DNA of 64,000 bases from Candidatus Woesearchaeota archaeon (GTDB lineage Archaea > Nanobdellota > Nanobdellia > Woesearchaeales > ARS49), in assembly GCA_030750765.1 (NCBI GenBank), contig JASMHM010000001.1, positions 334,696-398,695 of the forward strand, read 5' to 3'. The notes under the pieces are model-generated. The model was given only the letters and a program-made list of their open reading frames with translations. It was not told the DNA's origin and made no database searches. Each line of letters opens with the position of its first letter. The stretch's first letter is position 1. The position numbers were made by a program, and so were the translations under genes. Positions 1,711 to 35,843 of the stretch are shown piece after piece.

Positions 1711-2729
1711 GCAGGCATAGCGCCAGGAATTTCCTTAGCATCAACAACACTAGGATTCTTGTACAAGAACTTAATCAGTTCATACTGCTGTTGGTTAGCA
1801 AATACTGCAACATTAATCTTATCTGTTTTTTCGCTGCTAGCAATCAAGGTTTCGATATCACTACTCTCATCCCATTGATCTCCCTGTCCACATCTTACAA
1901 CGCAACCTGCATGTTGTGCAATCACAAATCCAGGAGAGTCGTAGGCTCCTTGCCCAAAGAGAATGTGGAAGTCGTGCGTCCCATCGGCAACCTTACAAGC
2001 CATTAGTGATGCACTTCCTGAACCTGGCTTGACATCACACGCGCCGTACGGTCGGGATTTGGATCCCACGGGGAAGGTGACCTCTCTAAAGAGTCCTTTC
2101 AAACGGTTGTTCACCTCAGGCATCCTTTCTCGGTCCGAAGAAGGCATATACGCACAACCATGCATATCTCCAAGGAAAGAAGTAATCGAAGGCGATAAAG
2201 CGAAACGAACTCGCTGCATAGAAGGCGGCGATCCTGCCGAGGTTGGGGAAGGAACAAGGACTGTTCTCTCTACGAAAGGCGCCCGGTCAAATTCATGGAT
2301 AAAGTGATCAAGGGTACCTGGCTGATACACACTAACAAACGGAACAGACGAATCTTCGGAGTGCACCAGAGCGACAACCGAACTCCAGTACCGACCGCCC
2401 AATTCTGCCACTGCCGTGCCATCCCTCGGATCTACAAGCCAGAAAGGACTGCCAGGTTTGTTTTCCAACTCTTCACCAACAAACCCGAAAGAGGGATTGA
2501 TTTGCCACAACTGTTCCCTTAGATCAGTTTCTATCGCAACATCGATGCTCGAACTGTAATTAGCCTCTGTGTCATGCAGGCCTCCAAACTGGCCCCAATA
2601 CTCTTTCACAACACACAGATGTCGTATCAGTGCCTCTTGGTTGATTTGTTGCATGGTTGTCATTAAACTGATCAAAGCACCGGAGGAATATAAAGGCGAT
2701 CCTCTACCTTTATAAGTAGAGATAGACAA
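1707..2729 (-). CDS. inositol monophosphatase/FBPase-family phosphatase
   Basis: IMPase signatures FVGEE and WLVDPRDGT (DPxDGT metal-binding motif), and a C-terminal WD-containing segment. Confidence 0.55.
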   Translation of the reverse strand: MSISTYKGRGSPLYSSGALISLMTTMQQINQEALIRHLCVVKEYWGQFGGLHDTEANYSSSIDVAIETDLREQLWQINPSFGFVGEELENKPGSPFWLVDPRDGTAVAELGGRYWSSVVALVHSEDSSVPFVSVYQPGTLDHFIHEFDRAPFVERTVLVPSPTSAGSPPSMQRVRFALSPSITSFLGDMHGCAYMPSSDRERMPEVNNRLKGLFREVTFPVGSKSRPYGACDVKPGSGSASLMACKVADGTHDFHILFGQGAYDSPGFVIAQHAGCVVRCGQGDQWDESSDIETLIASSEKTDKINVAVFANQQQYELIKFLYKNPSVVDAKEIPGAMPA

Positions 2730-3974: not shown

Positions 3975-5108
3975 GTGAACGAAGCGTATGCAACCTTGCG
4001 TAGTGACAATAGCGTTCACGTGAGAATGGTCTTTCCTGACAACAAAGTAAAAGCAGACGGACTGCGTTTCAAGGCATGCCCTGACGTTGGCGTCCAAGTA
4101 CACGCAGATTTGCTTGCAAAACAAGGCACAGGCAAGGAAGGAAGAATTGCCTTCCCGCACTCACCCTTCAAACCTGCCAGCGCGGGTGGCGTTATTTTCC
4201 TGGACAAGGGAGATACTGCCCTAGGCAGTCTGAGAAACATCAGACCGAGATCTCACACCGTTTATCAATCATGGAATGGCGGCTTTCCTACCAAGGAAGA
4301 AGGCGTCTACAGCGCAGAAGCGTTGGCAATTACGGGCGAAAGAGAGTTCAACGAAGAGATAGTCCTTGTAACCAAAGACGGTGCATTGATTGTAAACAAG
4401 CACGACACTCGCGGATATGCACAACACCGAGCAAAAATGGCAGGTCTCGAATTTGGAGATCGCATTGTACAAGTAGAACCGCAATATGTAACCGTTGGCG
4501 ACACGCTAACTGTGGAAGACCAATCAGGAAGCCCCATCTACAGAACAAACGATTGGAACGTGGAATGGATGCTAGAACAAACAAGCAGCCTCAACTGCGT
4601 AAAGCTGGTCGTATACGATCTTCCTTCAGACGAAGTATTTCCTCTAGATTTAGAGGGTAAGGAAAGTCCTTACGAAAGATTCAACTTACCCGTTGTCCTA
4701 CTCAAACGAGAACAAGTAGACGGGGAGCGTTTTGGCGCAGTCCTTGAGGATTATGTAGCCTGGAACGCAGATCTCTCATCCGGCAAAGCAGAGTTTAGAC
4801 GCTATCAGATGCCTGAACCATGCGAAGGTCCCGATAGAACTCCAACAAAAGGAATGGTGTACGCACCAGAAGATGGATTGTCAAAAGCAATATGTAGCAT
4901 GGGCTGGAAAACGCGGACAGACAGGGGAACGCTAGACCATTGGCTAGAAGTCGAGCTTTGGAAAGAGGGGAAAATGCTCGAACAGCAGACCTGTGTGCTC
5001 ACCCAAAAAGACGTTCCCTTAGACGCACTTCTTTGCCCAGAAGCGAGCGTAGACACCACGCGAATGCAGGGTTGGGTACCTCGATGGCTCGAAGAGAGCC
5101 CCTACTGA
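3975..5108 (+). CDS. hypothetical protein (377 aa), no recognisable motifs
   Basis: Long ORF in coding-dense context with a GTG start. Embedded in the heptose gene cluster. Confidence 0.5.
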   Translation: MNEAYATLRSDNSVHVRMVFPDNKVKADGLRFKACPDVGVQVHADLLAKQGTGKEGRIAFPHSPFKPASAGGVIFLDKGDTALGSLRNIRPRSHTVYQSWNGGFPTKEEGVYSAEALAITGEREFNEEIVLVTKDGALIVNKHDTRGYAQHRAKMAGLEFGDRIVQVEPQYVTVGDTLTVEDQSGSPIYRTNDWNVEWMLEQTSSLNCVKLVVYDLPSDEVFPLDLEGKESPYERFNLPVVLLKREQVDGERFGAVLEDYVAWNADLSSGKAEFRRYQMPEPCEGPDRTPTKGMVYAPEDGLSKAICSMGWKTRTDRGTLDHWLEVELWKEGKMLEQQTCVLTQKDVPLDALLCPEASVDTTRMQGWVPRWLEESPY

Positions 5109-18124: not shown

Positions 18125-18579
18125 AACTCAGTAGGCTGTGATGTAATCATCGAGCCAACGGAACTCATGGTTCCATCATATCTGGCGAAGGCACTTTCCG
18201 CCATGGAGCGGCGATCAGCAAGTGACATTCCTAACATTTGATCCTCTTCTTTCTCCCCAGGTGGCTCAGGCCCCATGCCCTTGGTAAGATACACTTCCAA
18301 CGCGTTTGATTGGCGAAGGAAATAGTTCGCGCGAATAGCTGCTTGCCTTGGAGGGGTAAGACTAAACTCACTGGTGCGTGCAACCAACAATCCATGCGCA
18401 ATCTTCCATGCATTAACGTGGACGTTAAATTCATCTACAGGGTTGCCTTCACGTTCAATACTTTTCTGCTGCATCTCGTGCGTAAATTGAACTAGATCCA
18501 AGTATGATTCTTCTTCCTCGTTTAAACCCATTGCGTTTACCAGAGATGGCAGAGTCACTTGAATGCGCAACGGAATCAT
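18112..18579 (-). CDS. hypothetical protein, predicted partner of the downstream nucleotidyltransferase
   Basis: Overlaps the NTase gene by 13 nt (operon). No clear Rx4-6H HEPN motif found. Confidence 0.4.
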   Translation of the reverse strand: MIPLRIQVTLPSLVNAMGLNEEEESYLDLVQFTHEMQQKSIEREGNPVDEFNVHVNAWKIAHGLLVARTSEFSLTPPRQAAIRANYFLRQSNALEVYLTKGMGPEPPGEKEEDQMLGMSLADRRSMAESAFARYDGTMSSVGSMITSQPTEFWTS

Positions 18580-28281: not shown

Positions 28282-29925
28282 TTATGGACCAGGGTTACAG
28301 CGGAAGACCATGCCGGTTTCTACACCCTGAGAATAGAAGCTTGTCTCCTTTGTGCAGGTGTTTACGGCCTCCCATAGGGGTCCTTGCTTGTTTATAGGAG
28401 GGAAGTCCACCCACATGATGGTACCGCCCTTCTTGAACTCTGATTGTAGGTAGCCTGCATTGATGGAAGTATCATTAAAGAAGTCAAGATTTGTCTTTTC
28501 ATACTCATCCAAGTATAACTTTAGCGCCCAGTTCCTAAAAAAGTACAGGTGCTGGTCTGTGGGCGTGGTTTCTTTGACATAGTCAATAGTGTGCTTGGTC
28601 ACTTGGTTGATGTTAGGATGGGTTGTTCCATAAGCAAACTCTTCGATGAGGTAGACGTTCAACACTAAGCTGGTGGCTAACAACAGCGCAAGCGTGGTCT
28701 CCTTATGGGGCAGCACCCAATACGCTATAACCGCGAGTGACGCTATGATAAATGCTAGGGCGATGCTGGAAAAGCTTGCTAAGAAACCAATAGGCCCCGA
28801 GCCGCCATTGAAAGGTATCAAGAACTGCCAGTCCAAAGACATGGCACGTTGTACGTACGCTTCTTTAGGGTAGAAGGGGAGTTGTTCTTGGGTTTGGTTG
28901 GCCCCTACAACCATGACCAGCATTAAGATGGAGAAGAAGGCAAAGCTCTGCCACCATCCTTTAGGCTTTTTGACCGTGACCTTGCTTAACCCGATAAACA
29001 AGAAGGCAGGCATCAGCAGCGTGAAGTATCTATCAAAAGGACTGAAGTTGTCATTCACGAACAAGGTATAGAAAAGGATGAGCAACACCACCCAAACGTA
29101 CCATCTGAAGTGTGCTTTTTCGTATTTTTTTATTCCCATAATGAATAGGGCACCAAAAGGTAGAGCTACCCAAAGCAAAGCGTACAACAGTTGTACAACG
29201 TAGGGCATGATGTGAAATTCTTGGAGCGTTTTCATCGTCATGTTCGCCCCCCTTTCTATCGTGCTGTAGAAATGGTTGCTTTTGGTTGCAAACGAAAGAA
29301 TAGGGAAGATGGCAAAGATGGCGGTGGTGATGAGACCTGCGATAAGACATCGCTTGATGGCCAACTTCCAATCTTTATGATAATACCATTGATCAAGTAA
29401 GAGTAAGGGATAGAAAAGGAAGCATTCGTACCTGCTGAGCATGCCAATGCCGCCTGCGATACCAAAAATGTACAACCATTTCACGTCTTTGGTTTTGTCC
29501 AAGCTAATCATAGCGTACATAGCGAGTAAGAATGCGAACAACATGTTCACACCGTTTAATTCTACTGCTACCGAAGCCCACACGGCATAAACAGAGAAGG
29601 CAAACAATCCAGCAGCCCAGAGCCCTGCCTTCTCATCATACATTCGTTTGCCGATAAGGTACACTAACCAAATGTTGAGCATCCCGAACAGGAGGCTTGC
29701 CAGCCTTGTGGCTAACGTGGCATCAGGGATGAACGTACCAAACAGCTGGTTCATCCATGTTGGCAAGGGAGGCATCTCAAAGTTTTCTATCAAACCTATA
29801 TGGTTAGTAGGCATGGCTCCCGGCACAAACCGGTACTCATCCCCATACACTAAATGCGTAAGTGCAGGCAATCGCACTGCTAGTGCTAACAAGAGGATAA
29901 TCCATAAGACATGCTTTGCTTGCAT
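28282..29925 (-). CDS. GT-C fold membrane glycosyltransferase (ArnT/PMT-like, GT39/GT83-like)
   Basis: TM1 followed by YGDEYRF (DE motif), then more than 10 TM helices. 547 aa. Confidence 0.65.
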   Translation of the reverse strand: MQAKHVLWIILLLALAVRLPALTHLVYGDEYRFVPGAMPTNHIGLIENFEMPPLPTWMNQLFGTFIPDATLATRLASLLFGMLNIWLVYLIGKRMYDEKAGLWAAGLFAFSVYAVWASVAVELNGVNMLFAFLLAMYAMISLDKTKDVKWLYIFGIAGGIGMLSRYECFLFYPLLLLDQWYYHKDWKLAIKRCLIAGLITTAIFAIFPILSFATKSNHFYSTIERGANMTMKTLQEFHIMPYVVQLLYALLWVALPFGALFIMGIKKYEKAHFRWYVWVVLLILFYTLFVNDNFSPFDRYFTLLMPAFLFIGLSKVTVKKPKGWWQSFAFFSILMLVMVVGANQTQEQLPFYPKEAYVQRAMSLDWQFLIPFNGGSGPIGFLASFSSIALAFIIASLAVIAYWVLPHKETTLALLLATSLVLNVYLIEEFAYGTTHPNINQVTKHTIDYVKETTPTDQHLYFFRNWALKLYLDEYEKTNLDFFNDTSINAGYLQSEFKKGGTIMWVDFPPINKQGPLWEAVNTCTKETSFYSQGVETGMVFRCNPGP

Positions 29926-30010
29926 GCATTAAGAGTTAACTGTGCGGTTAAAAGGTTTCTGTAAACCCCCAATCCAATACCTTTTTAAGCGGCCAGCAAG
30001 GTGATAAGGG

Positions 30011-30661
30011 ATGGAGGCGACTAAGAAAGGCTGGGAAAAGCACTGGAAACGCTTGGACACGCCCAGTGCATTCAGCAAATTCGCCCAATTCTTCAGACTC
30101 AACTTCAGAGCTCGTGCAGTCAGACAGGCATTCCGCAAACACTTTCCTGCAACAGGAACGTTTGTGGAAACCGGCAGTGGAAGCTCACAAACAAGCTACA
30201 GAATTCCAAGAGAAGGAAAGACCTTAATCGCGGTTGACTACGCACAAAGACCCCTAGACATCGCCAAGCGCTTTGTGGACAAGACAGTCAAGGCAGACAT
30301 AAGAAAAATGCCCTTCAAGAAGGACAGCATTGATGGTATCTGGAATCTGGGCGTCATGGAACACTTTACAGCGAAGGAAAGAGCAGTCATCTTCAAAGAA
30401 TTTCGCCGAGTGTTGAAGCCCGGAGGCAGGATCGTACTCTTCTGGCCCACACCACACGCTTCTGACAGAATAGTCCTTTCCATGGTAAGTAGCGTGTACC
30501 GCTTCTTTGGTGTTGCGAAGACCTTCTTTCCTGATGAACCAGGAAGAATAACCCCCTGGCAAGCCAGGGCAGAGTTACAGCAGAACAAGTTCAAACCGCA
30601 AGCAGCCTACATGCCCTTTTGGGATTGTTGGACTGAGATGATTGTTGTGGGTGAAAAATGA
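30011..30661 (+). CDS. class I SAM-dependent methyltransferase
   Basis: Motif I VETGSGSS, and VLKPGGRIVLFWP. Confidence 0.65.
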   Translation: MEATKKGWEKHWKRLDTPSAFSKFAQFFRLNFRARAVRQAFRKHFPATGTFVETGSGSSQTSYRIPREGKTLIAVDYAQRPLDIAKRFVDKTVKADIRKMPFKKDSIDGIWNLGVMEHFTAKERAVIFKEFRRVLKPGGRIVLFWPTPHASDRIVLSMVSSVYRFFGVAKTFFPDEPGRITPWQARAELQQNKFKPQAAYMPFWDCWTEMIVVGEK

Positions 30662-31371
30662 AGTTGCGAGACAGGTTTCGTAAGGCACACAACTGGGTAC
30701 CGACTTGCGACAAACTTCTAGACATTGGTGGAGATAAGGGAGATGTTACGAACGAATACTTGCAAAAAGCAAAAGAAGTACACTTGCTAGAGATCAATGC
30801 TGAAGCAGTAAAACATTGCAAGAAACATTTCCCTAAAGTAAAAGCCAAGCAAGGAGAGGCTGAAAAACTTCCGTACTGTAACAACATGTTTGATGTAGTT
30901 GTGATGACCGAAACCTTGGAGCACGTGCAAGATGCGCAGAAAACGATCAGCGAAATCCATAGAGTGTTGAAAAAGGACGGAACCTTGATCATGAGCACAC
31001 CAAACACGGGCTTGTTTGAATTCATGGACGTATTCAACCTCAAATTTCGCTTTCCCTTCCTGTTTAGGATGGTAAAAGGAGAACAGGCTGCGAAGTCCTA
31101 CACGCAAGAGCCAGATTGGCACAGACATTACTCCTTGCAACAATACAAACGATTGCTCAAAGAAGATTTTGGCATACAGAAGGTGCACAGAGGAGGGTTC
31201 TTTGTGTGGCCACTACTCTGGTTTGTCCAAGACGGCATCCTGCACTTCCTTTTCGAAAAAAACCCAACATGGGTAGACGCCATCAAGAACACACTCATGG
31301 AGTTAGACTTTAGTATTGACTACGGATCGTTCGCCTTCAACATCATGATACGAGCGAAAAAGATTTCTTGA
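30658..31371 (+). CDS. class I SAM-dependent methyltransferase
   Basis: LLDIGGDKG, DVVVMTETLEH and VLKKDGTLIMSTPN motifs. Confidence 0.7.
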   Translation: MKLRDRFRKAHNWVPTCDKLLDIGGDKGDVTNEYLQKAKEVHLLEINAEAVKHCKKHFPKVKAKQGEAEKLPYCNNMFDVVVMTETLEHVQDAQKTISEIHRVLKKDGTLIMSTPNTGLFEFMDVFNLKFRFPFLFRMVKGEQAAKSYTQEPDWHRHYSLQQYKRLLKEDFGIQKVHRGGFFVWPLLWFVQDGILHFLFEKNPTWVDAIKNTLMELDFSIDYGSFAFNIMIRAKKIS

Positions 31372-32284
31372 ACAAGGGCAACGTTTTTGCCTTGGTAAAC
31401 CTACTAGCAATCTTTCTTGCCTTACGAGATAATTTGGTTTGGTTGAGAAGTACGAACTCATACGCCACTACAGTGTCTGCCACGGTGTTGACCACTAACC
31501 TTGGAGAGAGTTCTCTTACCGCTTCTTTGTAGCCACACTGCTCTGTTACGATAGGTGTGAAGCCTGCAGCCATTGCCTCTATGATGTTGATCCCTGCAGG
31601 TTCTAGGCGAGCAAGATTAGCGTACACCCCACACTTTTCCAAGATTTTCTCAGGGCGAGGAACCTTTCCTGTAACAATGATTCCTGCCTCTTGACTGATC
31701 CAGGATAACTCACGCGATAAAGTTCCAACCAAGTACAAGTCCAGGTCGTGCTTGCTTTGCAAGGCGGTTGCTAACGCCGCCAATCTGTCCACACCCTTTT
31801 TCATGTTAAGATGCGGCCCTATGAAACAAAGGTTCTTGTTCTTCGCTGGTTTGATCTTTGCGTATGGTGTCGTGTCTACATACGGAGGCACGATGGAACG
31901 GGAAGCCTTCCAAGCCACATGATCGTCCATGAACCCGCTAGTGCTTATGATATTGGTGACTAGCTTGCCCGCCATATCAAACAATCCACGCACTACAAAA
32001 TTCCACTGCGTTCTTTCGATGAAAAAGGGGTCAGAATTGATAGCCACGACCTTAAACTTTCCAAACAAACGCTTCAATAACAAACCCGAGACCATCATCG
32101 GACTCTCAATCAAGTAAACATCCGCCTTTGGCAGGAATAACCCCCTAATAAACACATAAGCATGCATGAGTATGCCTGTGTTCTTTGCCCAACGTGGGGC
32201 AAAGCTAACAAATTGGGCATGCTGGCTCTTTGCCCAAGCCTCATGCACAGGATGAGGATCAAAATACAAGAACACAACCTTCAT
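31343..32284 (-). CDS. glycosyltransferase family 4 (GT-B, group 1)
   Basis: C-terminal EPAGINIIEAMAAGFTPIV (E-x7-E-like region). ATG at 32284 (MKVVFLYF) chosen over the track's TTG at 32302. Confidence 0.7.
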   Translation of the reverse strand: MKVVFLYFDPHPVHEAWAKSQHAQFVSFAPRWAKNTGILMHAYVFIRGLFLPKADVYLIESPMMVSGLLLKRLFGKFKVVAINSDPFFIERTQWNFVVRGLFDMAGKLVTNIISTSGFMDDHVAWKASRSIVPPYVDTTPYAKIKPAKNKNLCFIGPHLNMKKGVDRLAALATALQSKHDLDLYLVGTLSRELSWISQEAGIIVTGKVPRPEKILEKCGVYANLARLEPAGINIIEAMAAGFTPIVTEQCGYKEAVRELSPRLVVNTVADTVVAYEFVLLNQTKLSRKARKIASRFTKAKTLPLFKKSFSLVS

Positions 32285-33741
32285 ACGTTCCTTACATCCC
32301 AAACCTTTAGTGACATCCTCCCAATCCTAAAGGACTGGGCTTCCAGTTAAAAACCTTTTGCTGGAGGGTTCCTGCTTCACAGACTGACTTACCCCGAGAG
32401 GTAGCGGTCCTGTCTCTACAGGCGTGAATTCGGGCAAGCCCTGCCCTACTGCTCTCTTCAATATTTCCAAAGCGGAATTGAAATCTCTATCCATAACAAA
32501 ACCACATTCACACTCGTGCGTTCTCTGTGATAACTCTTTCTTTTCTTTCCTTCCACATGCTGAGCACGTTTGTGTTGTTCCTCTGGGGTCTACTTTGATT
32601 ACTCGAGTGCCCGCACTTTCGGCCTTGTACTCAAGCATTCTAACAAAGCAAGCCCAAGAAGCATCCATAATATTCCTTGCATTAAACGATGAGCGAATCA
32701 TTCCATGTATGTTCAAGGCCTCAACAGCAATAAAAGTATATGTTTTTGCATACCCACGTGAAAGCTTGTGGAGAAAATCATTGCGCTGGTCAACGATTTT
32801 TTCGTGGACTCTCGCAACTCTCCTCTTTTGTTTTTCTCTGTTTCGAGAACCTTTTTTTGTTCTGGAGAGTCGTTTTTGTGCTCTTCTCAATCGCTTCAAA
32901 CTCTTTCCCAAAATTTTTGGACTGTCTTCCCGATGCCCATCGCTGTCAAACACGAAATTGGTTATGCCCAGATCAATACCGACAGCTTTCTCGTCACGAG
33001 CCGGCAGAGGTTTCGTAGTTGATTCTGCGGCAACAAATGCAAACCACCTCCCGCTCGCATGTTTTTTGATGGTGACTTGTTTAATCTTTCCTTCAATCTC
33101 ACGATGCATGATGAAGGGAATTTTGTCAATTTTGGAAAGATGGAGTAAGTCGTAGCGTGTGTTTCGTGGGATGATTTTGAATCCGGATTGGTTGTACGTG
33201 AAGGTTTTGAACCAGGCCTTGCCTTTGAATCTTAGCTTGCCTACCTTCATTCCCTTCCTCTTCAGACCAGACAGCACTCTTAGGTGAGCAAACAAACGAT
33301 AATTCTCATACTGTAAAACTTTTGAATATGCATCACACAATTCAGGATGTTTTCTTTTAATCTCTAAGATAAAATGTTGCAGATCCACCTGTTTAATCTT
33401 CTTTTTGCTAAATCGTTCCAGCAAGGCGTCGTACACAAAACGACACCTGTCAAGCGTCCACAATAATTTCTTCTCTTGAGGGGGTGTTGGGTACAACCGA
33501 AATTTATACGTTCTTATCATACAAACTTTAGCAAGATTTACACCCCTATATGCTTCACGCACGCATGTCCAGTGTCCAGTGACTCCGACGAGAAAAACCG
33601 GAAATCTTCCGGGAAAATAGCCTAAAGAATAGAGTAATCGACCGGTATGCCCTAACACAAACAACGAAGCAAAAGTAGGATTTATAAAAGTACGAATGAC
33701 CCACACCATACCTTTTTAAGGAACCGACGAGGTGTTGATGA
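32285..33741 (-). mobile_element. IS1341-type (solo tnpB) insertion; element ends not defined
   Basis: tnpB without an adjacent tnpA (no HuH motif ORF nearby). Inserted in the divergent intergenic region between the GT4 and methyltransferase genes. Confidence 0.35.
32327..33520 (-). CDS. tnpB: IS200/IS605-family TnpB (OrfB) RNA-guided endonuclease-like protein
   Basis: N-terminus MIRTYKFRLYPT is an OrfB_IS605 hallmark. RuvC-like region, and C-terminal zinc finger CSACG...CECG. The track's N-terminal extension (to 33709) is rejected. Confidence 0.8.
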   Translation of the reverse strand: MIRTYKFRLYPTPPQEKKLLWTLDRCRFVYDALLERFSKKKIKQVDLQHFILEIKRKHPELCDAYSKVLQYENYRLFAHLRVLSGLKRKGMKVGKLRFKGKAWFKTFTYNQSGFKIIPRNTRYDLLHLSKIDKIPFIMHREIEGKIKQVTIKKHASGRWFAFVAAESTTKPLPARDEKAVGIDLGITNFVFDSDGHREDSPKILGKSLKRLRRAQKRLSRTKKGSRNREKQKRRVARVHEKIVDQRNDFLHKLSRGYAKTYTFIAVEALNIHGMIRSSFNARNIMDASWACFVRMLEYKAESAGTRVIKVDPRGTTQTCSACGRKEKKELSQRTHECECGFVMDRDFNSALEILKRAVGQGLPEFTPVETGPLPLGVSQSVKQEPSSKRFLTGSPVL

Positions 33742-34410
33742 ATGAGGATATCGAAAGAGGAGCATTGGGAGCAACAGCAGCAAGAAGAGTTCAAAACAAG
33801 AAAGGAAGGAACCACGCTGGCACAAAGCAAGAAGGCAGCTTACTTTATTGATATTCTCAAGAAGCATCAAGCTAAGAAAGTGTTGGATCTTGGTTGCAAT
33901 GATGGCGGTTTTACCATGCGATTGGAGCAAGAAGGTTTTGAGGCCATAGGTATGGACCTGCCCGATGTCGTCAAACACGCACAACAAAGCTTTCCCAAGG
34001 GTCATTTTGTTGCTGGCAGCGGAGAGAAGAAGTTTCCCTTCAAAGATGGAAGCTTTGATGCCATTATTGCGTCCGAAATCATCGAGCACATCCAGGAAGA
34101 CAAGCAATTCATTGAAGAATGCAAACGCATACTCAAGAAAGGAGGGATGCTGATAATGGCCACCCCAAATCCAGAGTACGCCATCCATGTTTGGCTGCGC
34201 ATGCTAGGTTACAAATGGGACAAAGGTCAGGACATGCACGCCAGAGAGTACACCTGGGAAGAGTTCAAGACCTTGCTCTCCCCCCTTTCGAACGTCACCA
34301 TCAAAGGCATTCCGTTCTCATACATCGATCACAAGAGCAAAGTAGGCTGGATTGAACGCTTTCTTGCAGACAGACAGAAACATACCTTGGTTGCTGTTGG
34401 GGTGCGATAG
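33742..34410 (+). CDS. class I SAM-dependent methyltransferase
   Basis: VLDLGCNDGGFT, DAIIASEIIEH and ILKKGGMLIMATPN motifs. TATA tttataaaag ~55 nt upstream. Confidence 0.75.
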   Translation: MRISKEEHWEQQQQEEFKTRKEGTTLAQSKKAAYFIDILKKHQAKKVLDLGCNDGGFTMRLEQEGFEAIGMDLPDVVKHAQQSFPKGHFVAGSGEKKFPFKDGSFDAIIASEIIEHIQEDKQFIEECKRILKKGGMLIMATPNPEYAIHVWLRMLGYKWDKGQDMHAREYTWEEFKTLLSPLSNVTIKGIPFSYIDHKSKVGWIERFLADRQKHTLVAVGVR

Positions 34411-34440
34411 GTTTAAAAGACAGTCCTCTTTTGTAGTATT

Positions 34441-34650
34441 GTGAGTGGAGTAACTGAATTTATAGATAATCCGACTTATTTTGGTAGAGATACCGACGGC
34501 GTTTCACTGACCGACCATAGCGAGACTTTCGCCCTCAACGAAGAAGGCGATGTGGATTGGGAAAGTATTGTAGAAGACGCCAGTAGAGAAAGCGAGTCGC
34601 GCAGGACTCGAGATGTCAGAGCCGTGTATCAGCGAATCGTCTCGCAATAG
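34441..34650 (+). CDS. small acidic hypothetical protein (69 aa)
   Basis: GTG start 22 nt after the TATA-like tttaaaag. Very acidic (D/E-rich) composition. Ends immediately before the 5S promoter. Confidence 0.3.
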   Translation: MSGVTEFIDNPTYFGRDTDGVSLTDHSETFALNEEGDVDWESIVEDASRESESRRTRDVRAVYQRIVSQ

Positions 34651-34652
34651 GT

Positions 34653-34660
34653 TTATAAAG
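34653..34660 (+). promoter_or_regulatory. TATA box of 5S rRNA promoter
   Basis: tttataaa positioned ~20-27 nt upstream of the 5S 5-prime end. Confidence 0.45.
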
Positions 34661-34678
34661 GACGTTCTTGTAGATTGC

Positions 34679-34795
34679 TTAGACGGCCATAGGGAGTGGG
34701 TCCCACCCGGTCTCATTCGAACCCGGAAGTTAAACCACTTTCCGTACCGGTCTGTACTGCGCTTTAGGTGTGGGAAAACCGGTAAGCTGTCACCC
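34679..34795 (+). rRNA. rrf: 5S ribosomal RNA (archaeal type)
   Basis: GGCCATAGGGAG...CACCCGGTCTCATTCGAACCCGGAAGTTAAAC matches the universally conserved 5S loop C/helix III region (cf. Sulfolobus CACCCGGACTCATTTCGAACCCGGAAGTTAAG). Helix I pairing occurs between the ends. Followed by TTTTTT. Confidence 0.8.
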
Positions 34796-34799
34796 TTTT

Positions 34800-35108
34800 T
34801 TATATTGGATCTAGCAAAGGTGTCTTTGCAGGTGCATACTTTGAAGCTGCAGCCATCAAAACGTTTGTTGCAACGCCTGCGATGAGCACACTCGGATAGT
34901 ACATCACGTTGAGCGCGATACCAGATAGCGCACCAACAGCGTATCCCATTCTTTGGTACCATCGAGAACCACCTCTTGCAGAGCGCATTGCTGCTCCACC
35001 TACGGTGTATCTTCCAGTGAGAATCGTGGTAGCCGTTCCTAAGGCATCTAGCGTTGTAACCAATCCTTTACCTGCTGCCGCAAGTGTGTCGGGTAATCGT
35101 GGGCTCAT
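34800..35108 (-). CDS. small glycine-zipper-like membrane protein (~100 aa)
   Basis: Gly/Ala-rich hydrophobic C-terminal half (GYAVGALSGIAL...AGVATNVLMAAA). ATG ~25 nt from a palindromic TATA (cttataaatt) shared with the divergent pcm gene. Confidence 0.3.
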   Translation of the reverse strand: MSPRLPDTLAAAGKGLVTTLDALGTATTILTGRYTVGGAAMRSARGGSRWYQRMGYAVGALSGIALNVMYYPSVLIAGVATNVLMAAASKYAPAKTPLLDPI

Positions 35109-35159
35109 AGAGAGTAGTAGTGTACTCACCCTTATAAATTTAGTGCTGATTTTCTTGCT

Positions 35160-35843
35160 ATGCAGTTTTTGGGTGATTTCATGAAGCAATGTAGCCTTGT
35201 ACCCAGCAGTCGGACGTTTGAAAGCATGCATGAATTGGTTTCAGTCATGCGTGAAGTTAACGATCTGTTCAAAAAACCAGTATCAGAACCCGTTCTGGAC
35301 GCTGTTGAAAAGGTCGATAGAAAAATATACTCAGGCACCTACGACATGCGGCCTCCTGCCATACCTTGCGGTCAGACCATGACCGCTCCGTACTTGCATG
35401 CTGCGTACGCAGAGGTACTCTCACAGCACTTACCAAAAGCGTGCAAGATCTTAGAGGTGGGAAGCGGTACAGGCACTCAAGCAGCCATCTATGCTAAGGC
35501 AATGCCTGGTGCGATCGTTATAACTTCGGACGTTCATGAAAAACTTGTTGAAGAATCTAACAGACATTTCGGAAGGGAAGGGCTGAGCGCAAGCGCACTG
35601 CATGTTGCTCCTGGAAGCTTGGACAAGGCACGCATGTTTGCTCCCTTTGACGCTATTACGTTCGCGTGCAATATCTCAGAAGACCGAGTGAAGGAATACG
35701 CACCGATGGCAAAGACATGCCTGTTGGCCCCAGTCACTATGCCCGAACAAGGACCACACGTAGCGATGTTAACCTTGATGAACCCCACGGGGACCGTCAT
35801 GATGGAGTTGGGCGGCGCAATGTTTGTTCCCTTTCAAGAATAG
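35160..35843 (+). CDS. pcm: protein-L-isoaspartate O-methyltransferase (PIMT)
   Basis: CGQTMTAPYLHA and ILEVGSGTGTQAA motifs. TATA 20-27 nt upstream. Confidence 0.7.
   Translation: MQFLGDFMKQCSLVPSSRTFESMHELVSVMREVNDLFKKPVSEPVLDAVEKVDRKIYSGTYDMRPPAIPCGQTMTAPYLHAAYAEVLSQHLPKACKILEVGSGTGTQAAIYAKAMPGAIVITSDVHEKLVEESNRHFGREGLSASALHVAPGSLDKARMFAPFDAITFACNISEDRVKEYAPMAKTCLLAPVTMPEQGPHVAMLTLMNPTGTVMMELGGAMFVPFQE

Follow-up and report, generated by a model that had tools for sequence, protein, structure and literature searches.

Among the closest described systems, ISDra2 has TTGAT as its transposon-adjacent motif. HgcC RNAs and sotRNAs are RNAs at the 3′ end of IS1341-type tnpB genes (PMC4615843). 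For TnpB7 of Sulfolobus islandicus, the adjacent motif TTTAA has been shown experimentally, with changes at the −1 position being tolerated; its guide starts right after UUCAC, and its native flank is left uncut, TTCAC standing there in place of the adjacent motif (PMC11043419). TldR proteins are TnpB-like nuclease-dead repressors in which RuvC catalysis and the transposon ends have been lost (PMC10705468). Here we examined a tnpB locus in a stretch of 64,000 nt (hereafter the window) from contig JASMHM010000001.1 of a Candidatus Woesearchaeota archaeon. The tnpB gene belongs to an insertion sequence of about 1,312 bp (32310..33621, minus strand) that lies between divergent genes for a class I S-adenosylmethionine (SAM) methyltransferase and a GT4-family glycosyltransferase (hereafter GT4). 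We conclude that it is very probably an intact, tnpB-only IS200/IS605 element of the IS1341 type with an omega-RNA, inserted at the position of the GT4 TATA box. It is an ordinary and typical element of a known kind rather than a new type, one more of the very abundant tnpB-only elements, in this case from a little-studied DPANN archaeon.

The tnpB coding sequence occupies 32327..33520 on the minus strand, from an ATG at 33520-33518 (MIRTYKFRLYPT) to a TAG at 32329-32327, and encodes a candidate RNA-guided nuclease of 397 aa. It is the sole long minus-strand reading frame between the start codons of GT4 (32284) and the methyltransferase (33742). The protein passed the cut-offs of the Pfam models HTH_OrfB_IS605 (38.9 bits against 21, E = 6e-10), OrfB_IS605 (97.1 against 30.5, E = 1.1e-27) and Cas12f1-like_TNB (80.8 against 26.3, E = 8.3e-23). 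It also passed that of the NCBIfam model guided_TnpB (271 bits, cut-off 100); this broader subfamily model was the only one passed there, as the exception-level model IS200_TnpB (NF038281) gave 260.4 bits, below its 425. Structures of ISDra2 TnpB (PDB 8EXA/8BF8) matched residues 4-362 with an E-value of 1.3e-47. The two proteins share their domain order, an aligned RuvC D-E-D triad and the zinc finger (PDB 8EXA, 8BF8, 8H1J), with D346 aligned to D361 of ISDra2; ISDra2 differs in being an element of a bacterium, Deinococcus radiodurans, and in carrying tnpA. In a 35-sequence alignment of TnpB and 34 homologues, the RuvC residues D183, E267 and D346 were invariant, as were the zinc-finger cysteines C319, C322, C337 and C339 (CxxC...CxC). 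The original prediction had named both features from the sequence and had tied an inactive relic to absent RuvC residues, and these residues are present. Judging from its sequence, TnpB is apparently an active RNA-guided nuclease. Other reading frames were rejected as artefacts for want of any Pfam match, namely a 460-aa N-terminally extended tnpB call (JGI/ENA) whose 63 added residues are without homology, a 243-aa frame antisense to tnpB and a 168-aa frame across the methyltransferase start.

The gene had been described as a solo tnpB, and this description holds. The tnpB ATG is just 221 nt away from the divergent methyltransferase ATG, which leaves no room for tnpA, and the left end of about 101 nt is followed directly by tnpB. 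When the 64-kb window was searched by tblastn at E ≤ 10 with a confirmed Y1 TnpA, a 134-aa protein encoded upstream of tnpB in the related locus L003 (Y1_Tnp match, 2e-37), no tnpA homologue was found. With the same query, tnpA was detected immediately before the tnpB of about 15 related loci. The lack of tnpA within the element places it in the IS1341 type, and its assignment to the IS200/IS605 family follows from a subterminal hairpin near each end, a short motif on the 5′ side of the insertion and the absence of a target-site duplication, the flanks TTTAG| and |TAAAGG not being duplicated.

The boundaries of the element were derived by comparison with its relatives. The right end (...GGAGGAnGTCAC) is the point at which homology stops among paralogues with different flanks. 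The similarity of the window to L015, L013/L020 and L021 ends right after GGAGGAnGTCA(C/T), so that four different flanks define this end, and GTAGTTCAC marks the equivalent boundary in about 70 further relatives. A subterminal hairpin lies at 32338..32319 (minus). The left boundary was placed by analogy, using 35 family loci whose homology begins at TTTAA or TTTAG. Where two related elements are preceded by unrelated DNA, TTTAAC marks the onset of their homology and is followed within a few nucleotides by a GGAAG...CTTCC hairpin. The analogous hairpin in the window, CCGGAAGATTTCCGG (33598..33612, minus), has a perfect 6-bp stem and a 3-nt loop and is kept in the paralogues L015, L013 and L002. 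It is preceded by TTTAG at 33622..33626 (minus), the transposon-adjacent motif. The family consensus is TTTAA, found before the large majority of left ends, while TTTAG precedes three (the window, L036 and L060) and TCTAA one. The span first proposed, 32285-33741, is a real region, but it is the whole intergenic region, whereas the element proper covers 32310..33621 plus the TTTAG. Alignment to related tnpB loci, which had been put forward as the way to define the ends, fixed the right end at 32310 but left 33621 less certain.

Within the left end, a TATA-like CATATAG at 33546..33552 (minus) lies 26 nt before the tnpB ATG and is the putative tnpB promoter. Its position is kept in the paralogues (GCATATAAGG, GCTTATTAG) and its spacing, which fits the TATA-to-ATG distance of the genome, suggests a leaderless tnpB transcript.

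The scaffold of the omega-RNA, or right-end element RNA (reRNA), was located with a covariance model, R1, built from 52 relatives with the window and its three closest paralogues left out. R1 gave a single match in the window, to minus-strand positions 32450..32310, with 74.1 bits, an E-value of 1.2e-15 and model positions 1-114 of 114 covered; no second right end was found by this model in the window. The match defines a scaffold of 141 nt that overlaps the last ~41 codons of tnpB and the right end, as had been anticipated from known systems, and it ends on the C of ...GUCAC at 32310, the right end of the family. In an RNAalifold consensus of 56 sequences, compensatory changes occur in 25 of 27 pairs; of all 27, 24 are formed by the window sequence. 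Among four copies of the subfamily, synonymous divergence (dS) in tnpB drops about fourfold, from about 1.0 to 0.2-0.3 over the last ~47 codons, as expected if an RNA constrains synonymous sites. With permissive thresholds, the Rfam family HgcC (RF00062) gave a sub-threshold full-length match at 32416..32301 (22.3 bits, E = 0.005 in a 501-nt search), the best-aligned part of which is the terminal hairpin CCCAGUCCUUUAGGAUUGGG followed by AGGAUGUCA. The locus thus resembles the IS1341/sotRNA (HgcC) systems in having tnpB without tnpA and a structured RNA over the tnpB 3′ end and the right end, and the HgcC consensus in its terminal hairpin followed by GGAGGAnGUCA (PMC4615843). It differs from them in its score and in its host, a marine DPANN archaeon of the Woesearchaeota and not a methanogen or haloarchaeon.

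An additional hairpin in the scaffold (CUCCAG...CUGGAAG; 32342..32368, minus) is common to the window and L015 and absent from most relatives. Its loop AAAAGGUUUUUAA holds a T5 run that resembles the local TATA core and an archaeal terminator signal alike.

Since the R1 match stops exactly at the ...GUCAC right end, the guide is predicted, by analogy with TnpB7, to consist of the nucleotides right after 32310, that is, 16-25 nt from 32309 downwards, 5′-UAAAGGUUUGGGAUGU(AAGGAACGU). The right-end flank concerned, 5′-UAAAGGUUUGGGAUGUAAGGAACGU (32285..32309, minus), is also the 25-nt GT4 leader. The suggestion that the guide would fall at the start of GT4 can be made more precise in that this flank lies immediately upstream of the GT4 ATG; a guide of 16-20 nt would end 5-9 nt before the ATG, which would be reached only by a guide of more than 25 nt. 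The guide 16-mer occurs once in the window. In the wider family, the arrangement is similar to that of S. islandicus TnpB7, with its TTTAA motif, its UUCAC right end followed by the guide and its protected native flank; the element in the window differs in being without tnpA, in its TTTAG motif, in its GUCAC right end and in the extra scaffold hairpin. The practical value of the locus is that of a delimited candidate compact nuclease system comprising TnpB, its 141-nt scaffold, a guide start and TTTAG/TTTAA as the predicted motif.

We next considered the insertion site. GT4 (31343..32284, minus; Pfam Glycos_transf_1 and Glyco_trans_1_4) lies downstream of the element on the same strand as tnpB, and the distance from the tnpB stop to the GT4 ATG, given earlier as approximately 42 nt, is exactly 42 nt (32326..32285). 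The methyltransferase gene (33742..34410, plus; Pfam Methyltransf_11) is divergent. A protein search followed by contig look-up yielded an analogue of the empty site, the syntenic relative L022 (GCA_016203395.1), in which a methyltransferase and a GT4 gene are likewise divergent, stand 50 nt apart and have no element between them. This supports the proposal that the element splits a divergent promoter region. The L022 orthologues are 56% (methyltransferase) and 55% (GT4) identical to those in the window. Because the GT4 alignment begins at residue 1, the GT4 start codon is ancestral. Two other GT4 homologues, L024 and L025 (~42% identity), were dropped as comparators since they are not syntenic, and a metagenome scan with the GT4 protein found no empty-site relatives.

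The spacing of promoter elements indicates what was interrupted. Of 54 genes in the window, 29 have a TATA-like core (CTTTAAAA, CTTTTAAG or CCTTTTTAAG) whose end lies 19-27 nt upstream of the ATG, most commonly 22-24 nt, and this regularity suggests that transcripts in this Woesearchaeota genome are mostly leaderless. In L022, a TTTATTAATATA box is found about 24-35 nt before the GT4 ATG. When the flanks in the window are joined without the element (...CTATTCTTTAG|TAAAGGTTTGGGATGTAAGGAACGT-ATG), TTTAG ends 25 nt before the GT4 ATG, from which we infer that the element split the GT4 TATA position; junctions reconstructed with other extents read TTCTTTAG|TAAAGGTTTGGG and ...ACTCTATTCTTTAG|TAAAGGTTTGGGATGTAAGGAACGTATG. 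Since the insertion, no TATA core has been left at the normal distance from GT4. The TATA-like sequence of the methyltransferase itself, CCTTTTTAAGG (33711..33721), is intact, and its core ends 22 nt before the ATG.

The right end of the element holds two TATA-like cores on the minus strand, TTTAA at 32351..32347 (in GGTTTTTAAC) and TTTAG at 32331..32327 (in CCTTTAGG), which we regard as candidate promoters directed outward to GT4. Promoter cores of the genome are almost the same as GGTTTTTAAC, an example being aggTTTTTAAActg upstream of the gene starting at 18579. These cores could fire towards GT4, and the T5 run in the right end could equally be an archaeal terminator; there is no run of five or more T between the tnpB stop and GT4. 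Transcription of GT4 by readthrough or from an outward right-end promoter is plausible on these grounds.

The methyltransferase-tnpB-GT4 arrangement was found in many independent marine assemblies with 99.8-100% nucleotide identity. In a separate look-up, which started from the exact GT4 protein and was therefore unbiased towards tnpB, 24 contigs carrying this protein were examined, and tnpB stands upstream of GT4 in all of them wherever the contig extends far enough. Together, these results establish that the insertion is real and population-wide. This near-identity of the orthologous loci (99.8-100%) led us to measure selection by comparing paralogues instead, and the tnpB dN/dS (the ratio of nonsynonymous to synonymous divergence) of 0.09-0.16 among the four subfamily copies indicates purifying selection.

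We propose the following sequence of events. The element would have inserted 3′ of TTTAG, at the place of the GT4 TATA box, in the short promoter region between the two divergent genes. Its tnpB would be transcribed from the TATA-like motif in its own left end, and the 3′ part of that transcript would give rise to the omega-RNA. The TnpB-omega-RNA complex would spare its own locus, since GTCAC stands where the motif would have to be. An element-free allele, in which TTTAG is followed by TAAAGGTTTGGGATGT..., would be cut, and retention or re-copying of the element would be favoured. The element itself would be non-autonomous and, since there is no tnpA nearby, probably immobile. Since no TATA core is found at the normal distance, the transcription of GT4 probably depends on readthrough from the element or on the TATA-like motifs in the right end. 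The locus would offer a clean natural case in which an RNA-guided transposon replaces the core promoter of a surface-glycosylation gene and becomes fixed.

Several observations weigh against this interpretation. The argument that the element split the TATA box is one of spacing only, with no alignable empty site, and the relative L022 is just 55% identical. The HgcC score of the RNA is below the gathering threshold of 50, so it is not a curated-threshold member of that family. Folded singly, the last 240 nt show no gain in stability over shuffled sequences (z = −0.51), for which reason the evidence for structure was taken from comparison. The search for tnpA covered the 64-kb window only. Similarity to the paralogues extends upstream of TTTAG, by 7-8 nt with L015 (to 33633) and by about 30 nt with L013 (to ~33651), which makes the left boundary less secure than the right one; because this similarity fades gradually, the family-wide TTTAA/TTTAG rule was used to place it. 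As the orthologous loci are nearly identical, fixation here refers to one closely related population. Lastly, transcription, nuclease activity and the effect on GT4 are predicted here from sequence.

The sequences upstream of the TTTAG are alike in three paralogues that stand in different contexts (window 33627..33651, L015 3950..3963 and L013 3900..3930), where they read TCTATTC/TCTATTT and GGCATAnnGGTnnAT-TACTC. This similarity may reflect a left end that extends further or a preference for a longer target.

The alternative that survives best is an immobile, neutral relic, in which the tnpB frame is still open while TnpB and the omega-RNA are inert, with a weak residual promoter left to express GT4. 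No tnpA is present in the window, and the closest TnpB paralogues share only 77-81% protein identity, so there is no sign of recent transposition; one of these paralogues, L002, lacks the right-end hairpin, and the orthologous copies are too alike for selection to be measured at this locus itself. A relic would nevertheless have to account for a full-length frame with all catalytic and zinc-binding residues intact, a scaffold with a 74-bit score in which 24 of the 27 consensus pairs can form, a dN/dS of about 0.1 among paralogues, and the integrity of both ends and of the internal TATA-like motif. We therefore regard a relic as unlikely.

An intact element is also to be preferred over a domesticated, TldR-like regulator that would bind the GT4 leader or promoter through its guide and control GT4. 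The element shares with TldR systems a protein of the TnpB type and a guide that matches a site near the promoter of a host gene; it is, moreover, present in every contig of the population, and a sister element lies 24 nt from a rotamase gene in another Woesearchaeota genome. The match to the GT4 leader is not evidence of regulation, however, as it follows automatically from the insertion site and the guide matches its own flank in every insertion of the family. In addition, the genomic target of the guide is preceded by GTCAC rather than by the motif, and TTCAC at this position abolished cleavage in Sulfolobus (PMC11043419). TldR proteins are nuclease-dead, whereas the TnpB in the window keeps its RuvC triad, and the element has both its ends and its adjacent motif in normal form. 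With the catalytic residues and both transposon ends intact, we rejected this explanation as highly improbable.

A complete IS605 with tnpA, or a part of a larger composite element, has practically no chance of being correct and is refuted for this window, since, even though some 15 related loci have a tnpA immediately before tnpB, there are only 221 nt between tnpB and the methyltransferase ATG, no Y1 transposase homologue in 64 kb, no Pfam match in the antisense and N-terminally extended frames and no second right end detected by R1; a tnpA elsewhere would make the intact tnpB-only element mobilisable in trans and still not a complete IS605.

To place this insertion in the context of its family, the orientation of neighbouring genes was compared across related loci (L003, L013, L015, L021 and L032-L110), all counts resting on genes called crudely from reading frames. 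Downstream of the right end, the neighbouring gene has the orientation of tnpB in 40 of 53 loci (p = 2.7e-4), and 10 of these 40 genes begin at a distance of 24-38 nt from that end. No such bias is seen upstream, where 20 neighbours are co-oriented and 22 divergent (Fisher p = 0.006 for the comparison with downstream). This co-orientation is compatible with elements that insert at TATA-like TTTAA sites and persist where their orientation lets the downstream gene be transcribed. In the sister element L015, which resides in another Woesearchaeota genome, the distance to the ATG of a rotamase gene is 24 nt; element-free versions of the L015, L013, L021 and L002 sites were found neither in the window nor in the family loci examined. 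A broader, tentative idea is that the adjacent motif (TTTAA/TTTAG) is the archaeal TATA core itself, so that elements land in the sense orientation in leaderless promoters, become the transcription source of the downstream gene and are then hard to lose. It draws on the motif-to-ATG distances of 25 nt here and 24 nt in L015 against the genomic TATA mode of 22-24 nt, on the downstream co-orientation of 40:13 against 20:22 upstream, and on the TATA-like cores in the right end; we nonetheless consider it rather doubtful. Should both the family-wide co-orientation and the match between motif and TATA box prove real, target choice by such elements would be tied to archaeal promoter architecture, and one route to their entrenchment would be suggested.

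Some of the paralogues are themselves incomplete or rearranged. L002, an 81%-identical paralogue from Woesearchaeota ARS49, ends GAAGCAGGAACCT-TAG at 4100..4170, without the terminal hairpin and the GTCAC end, and is a 3′-truncated, presumably guide-less copy. L020 (~2100..2290) and L013 (2101..2286) contain a second, truncated left end with the first ~60 tnpB codons (helix-turn-helix only), about 1.7 kb upstream of the full paralogue. The protein of L021 is identical to that of L020, yet its right-end hairpin and downstream gene are different, which suggests recombination between copies or a chimeric assembly.

The wider neighbourhood of the element (28282..31371 and 33742..35843) is a glycosylation/modification cluster that includes a PMT_2 mannosyltransferase, three paralogous class I SAM methyltransferases, GT4 and PCMT. 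At Rfam gathering thresholds, 5S rRNA was the only match in the whole 64-kb window, and ARAGORN detected no tRNA in it. This lone 5S rRNA gene (34679..34795, plus; 73.6 bits) lies between the methyltransferase gene and the PCMT-type methyltransferase gene, and several mechanical reading frames overlap it. Beyond PMT_2, nucleotide-sugar enzymes are encoded further along the contig, as seen in locus L001.

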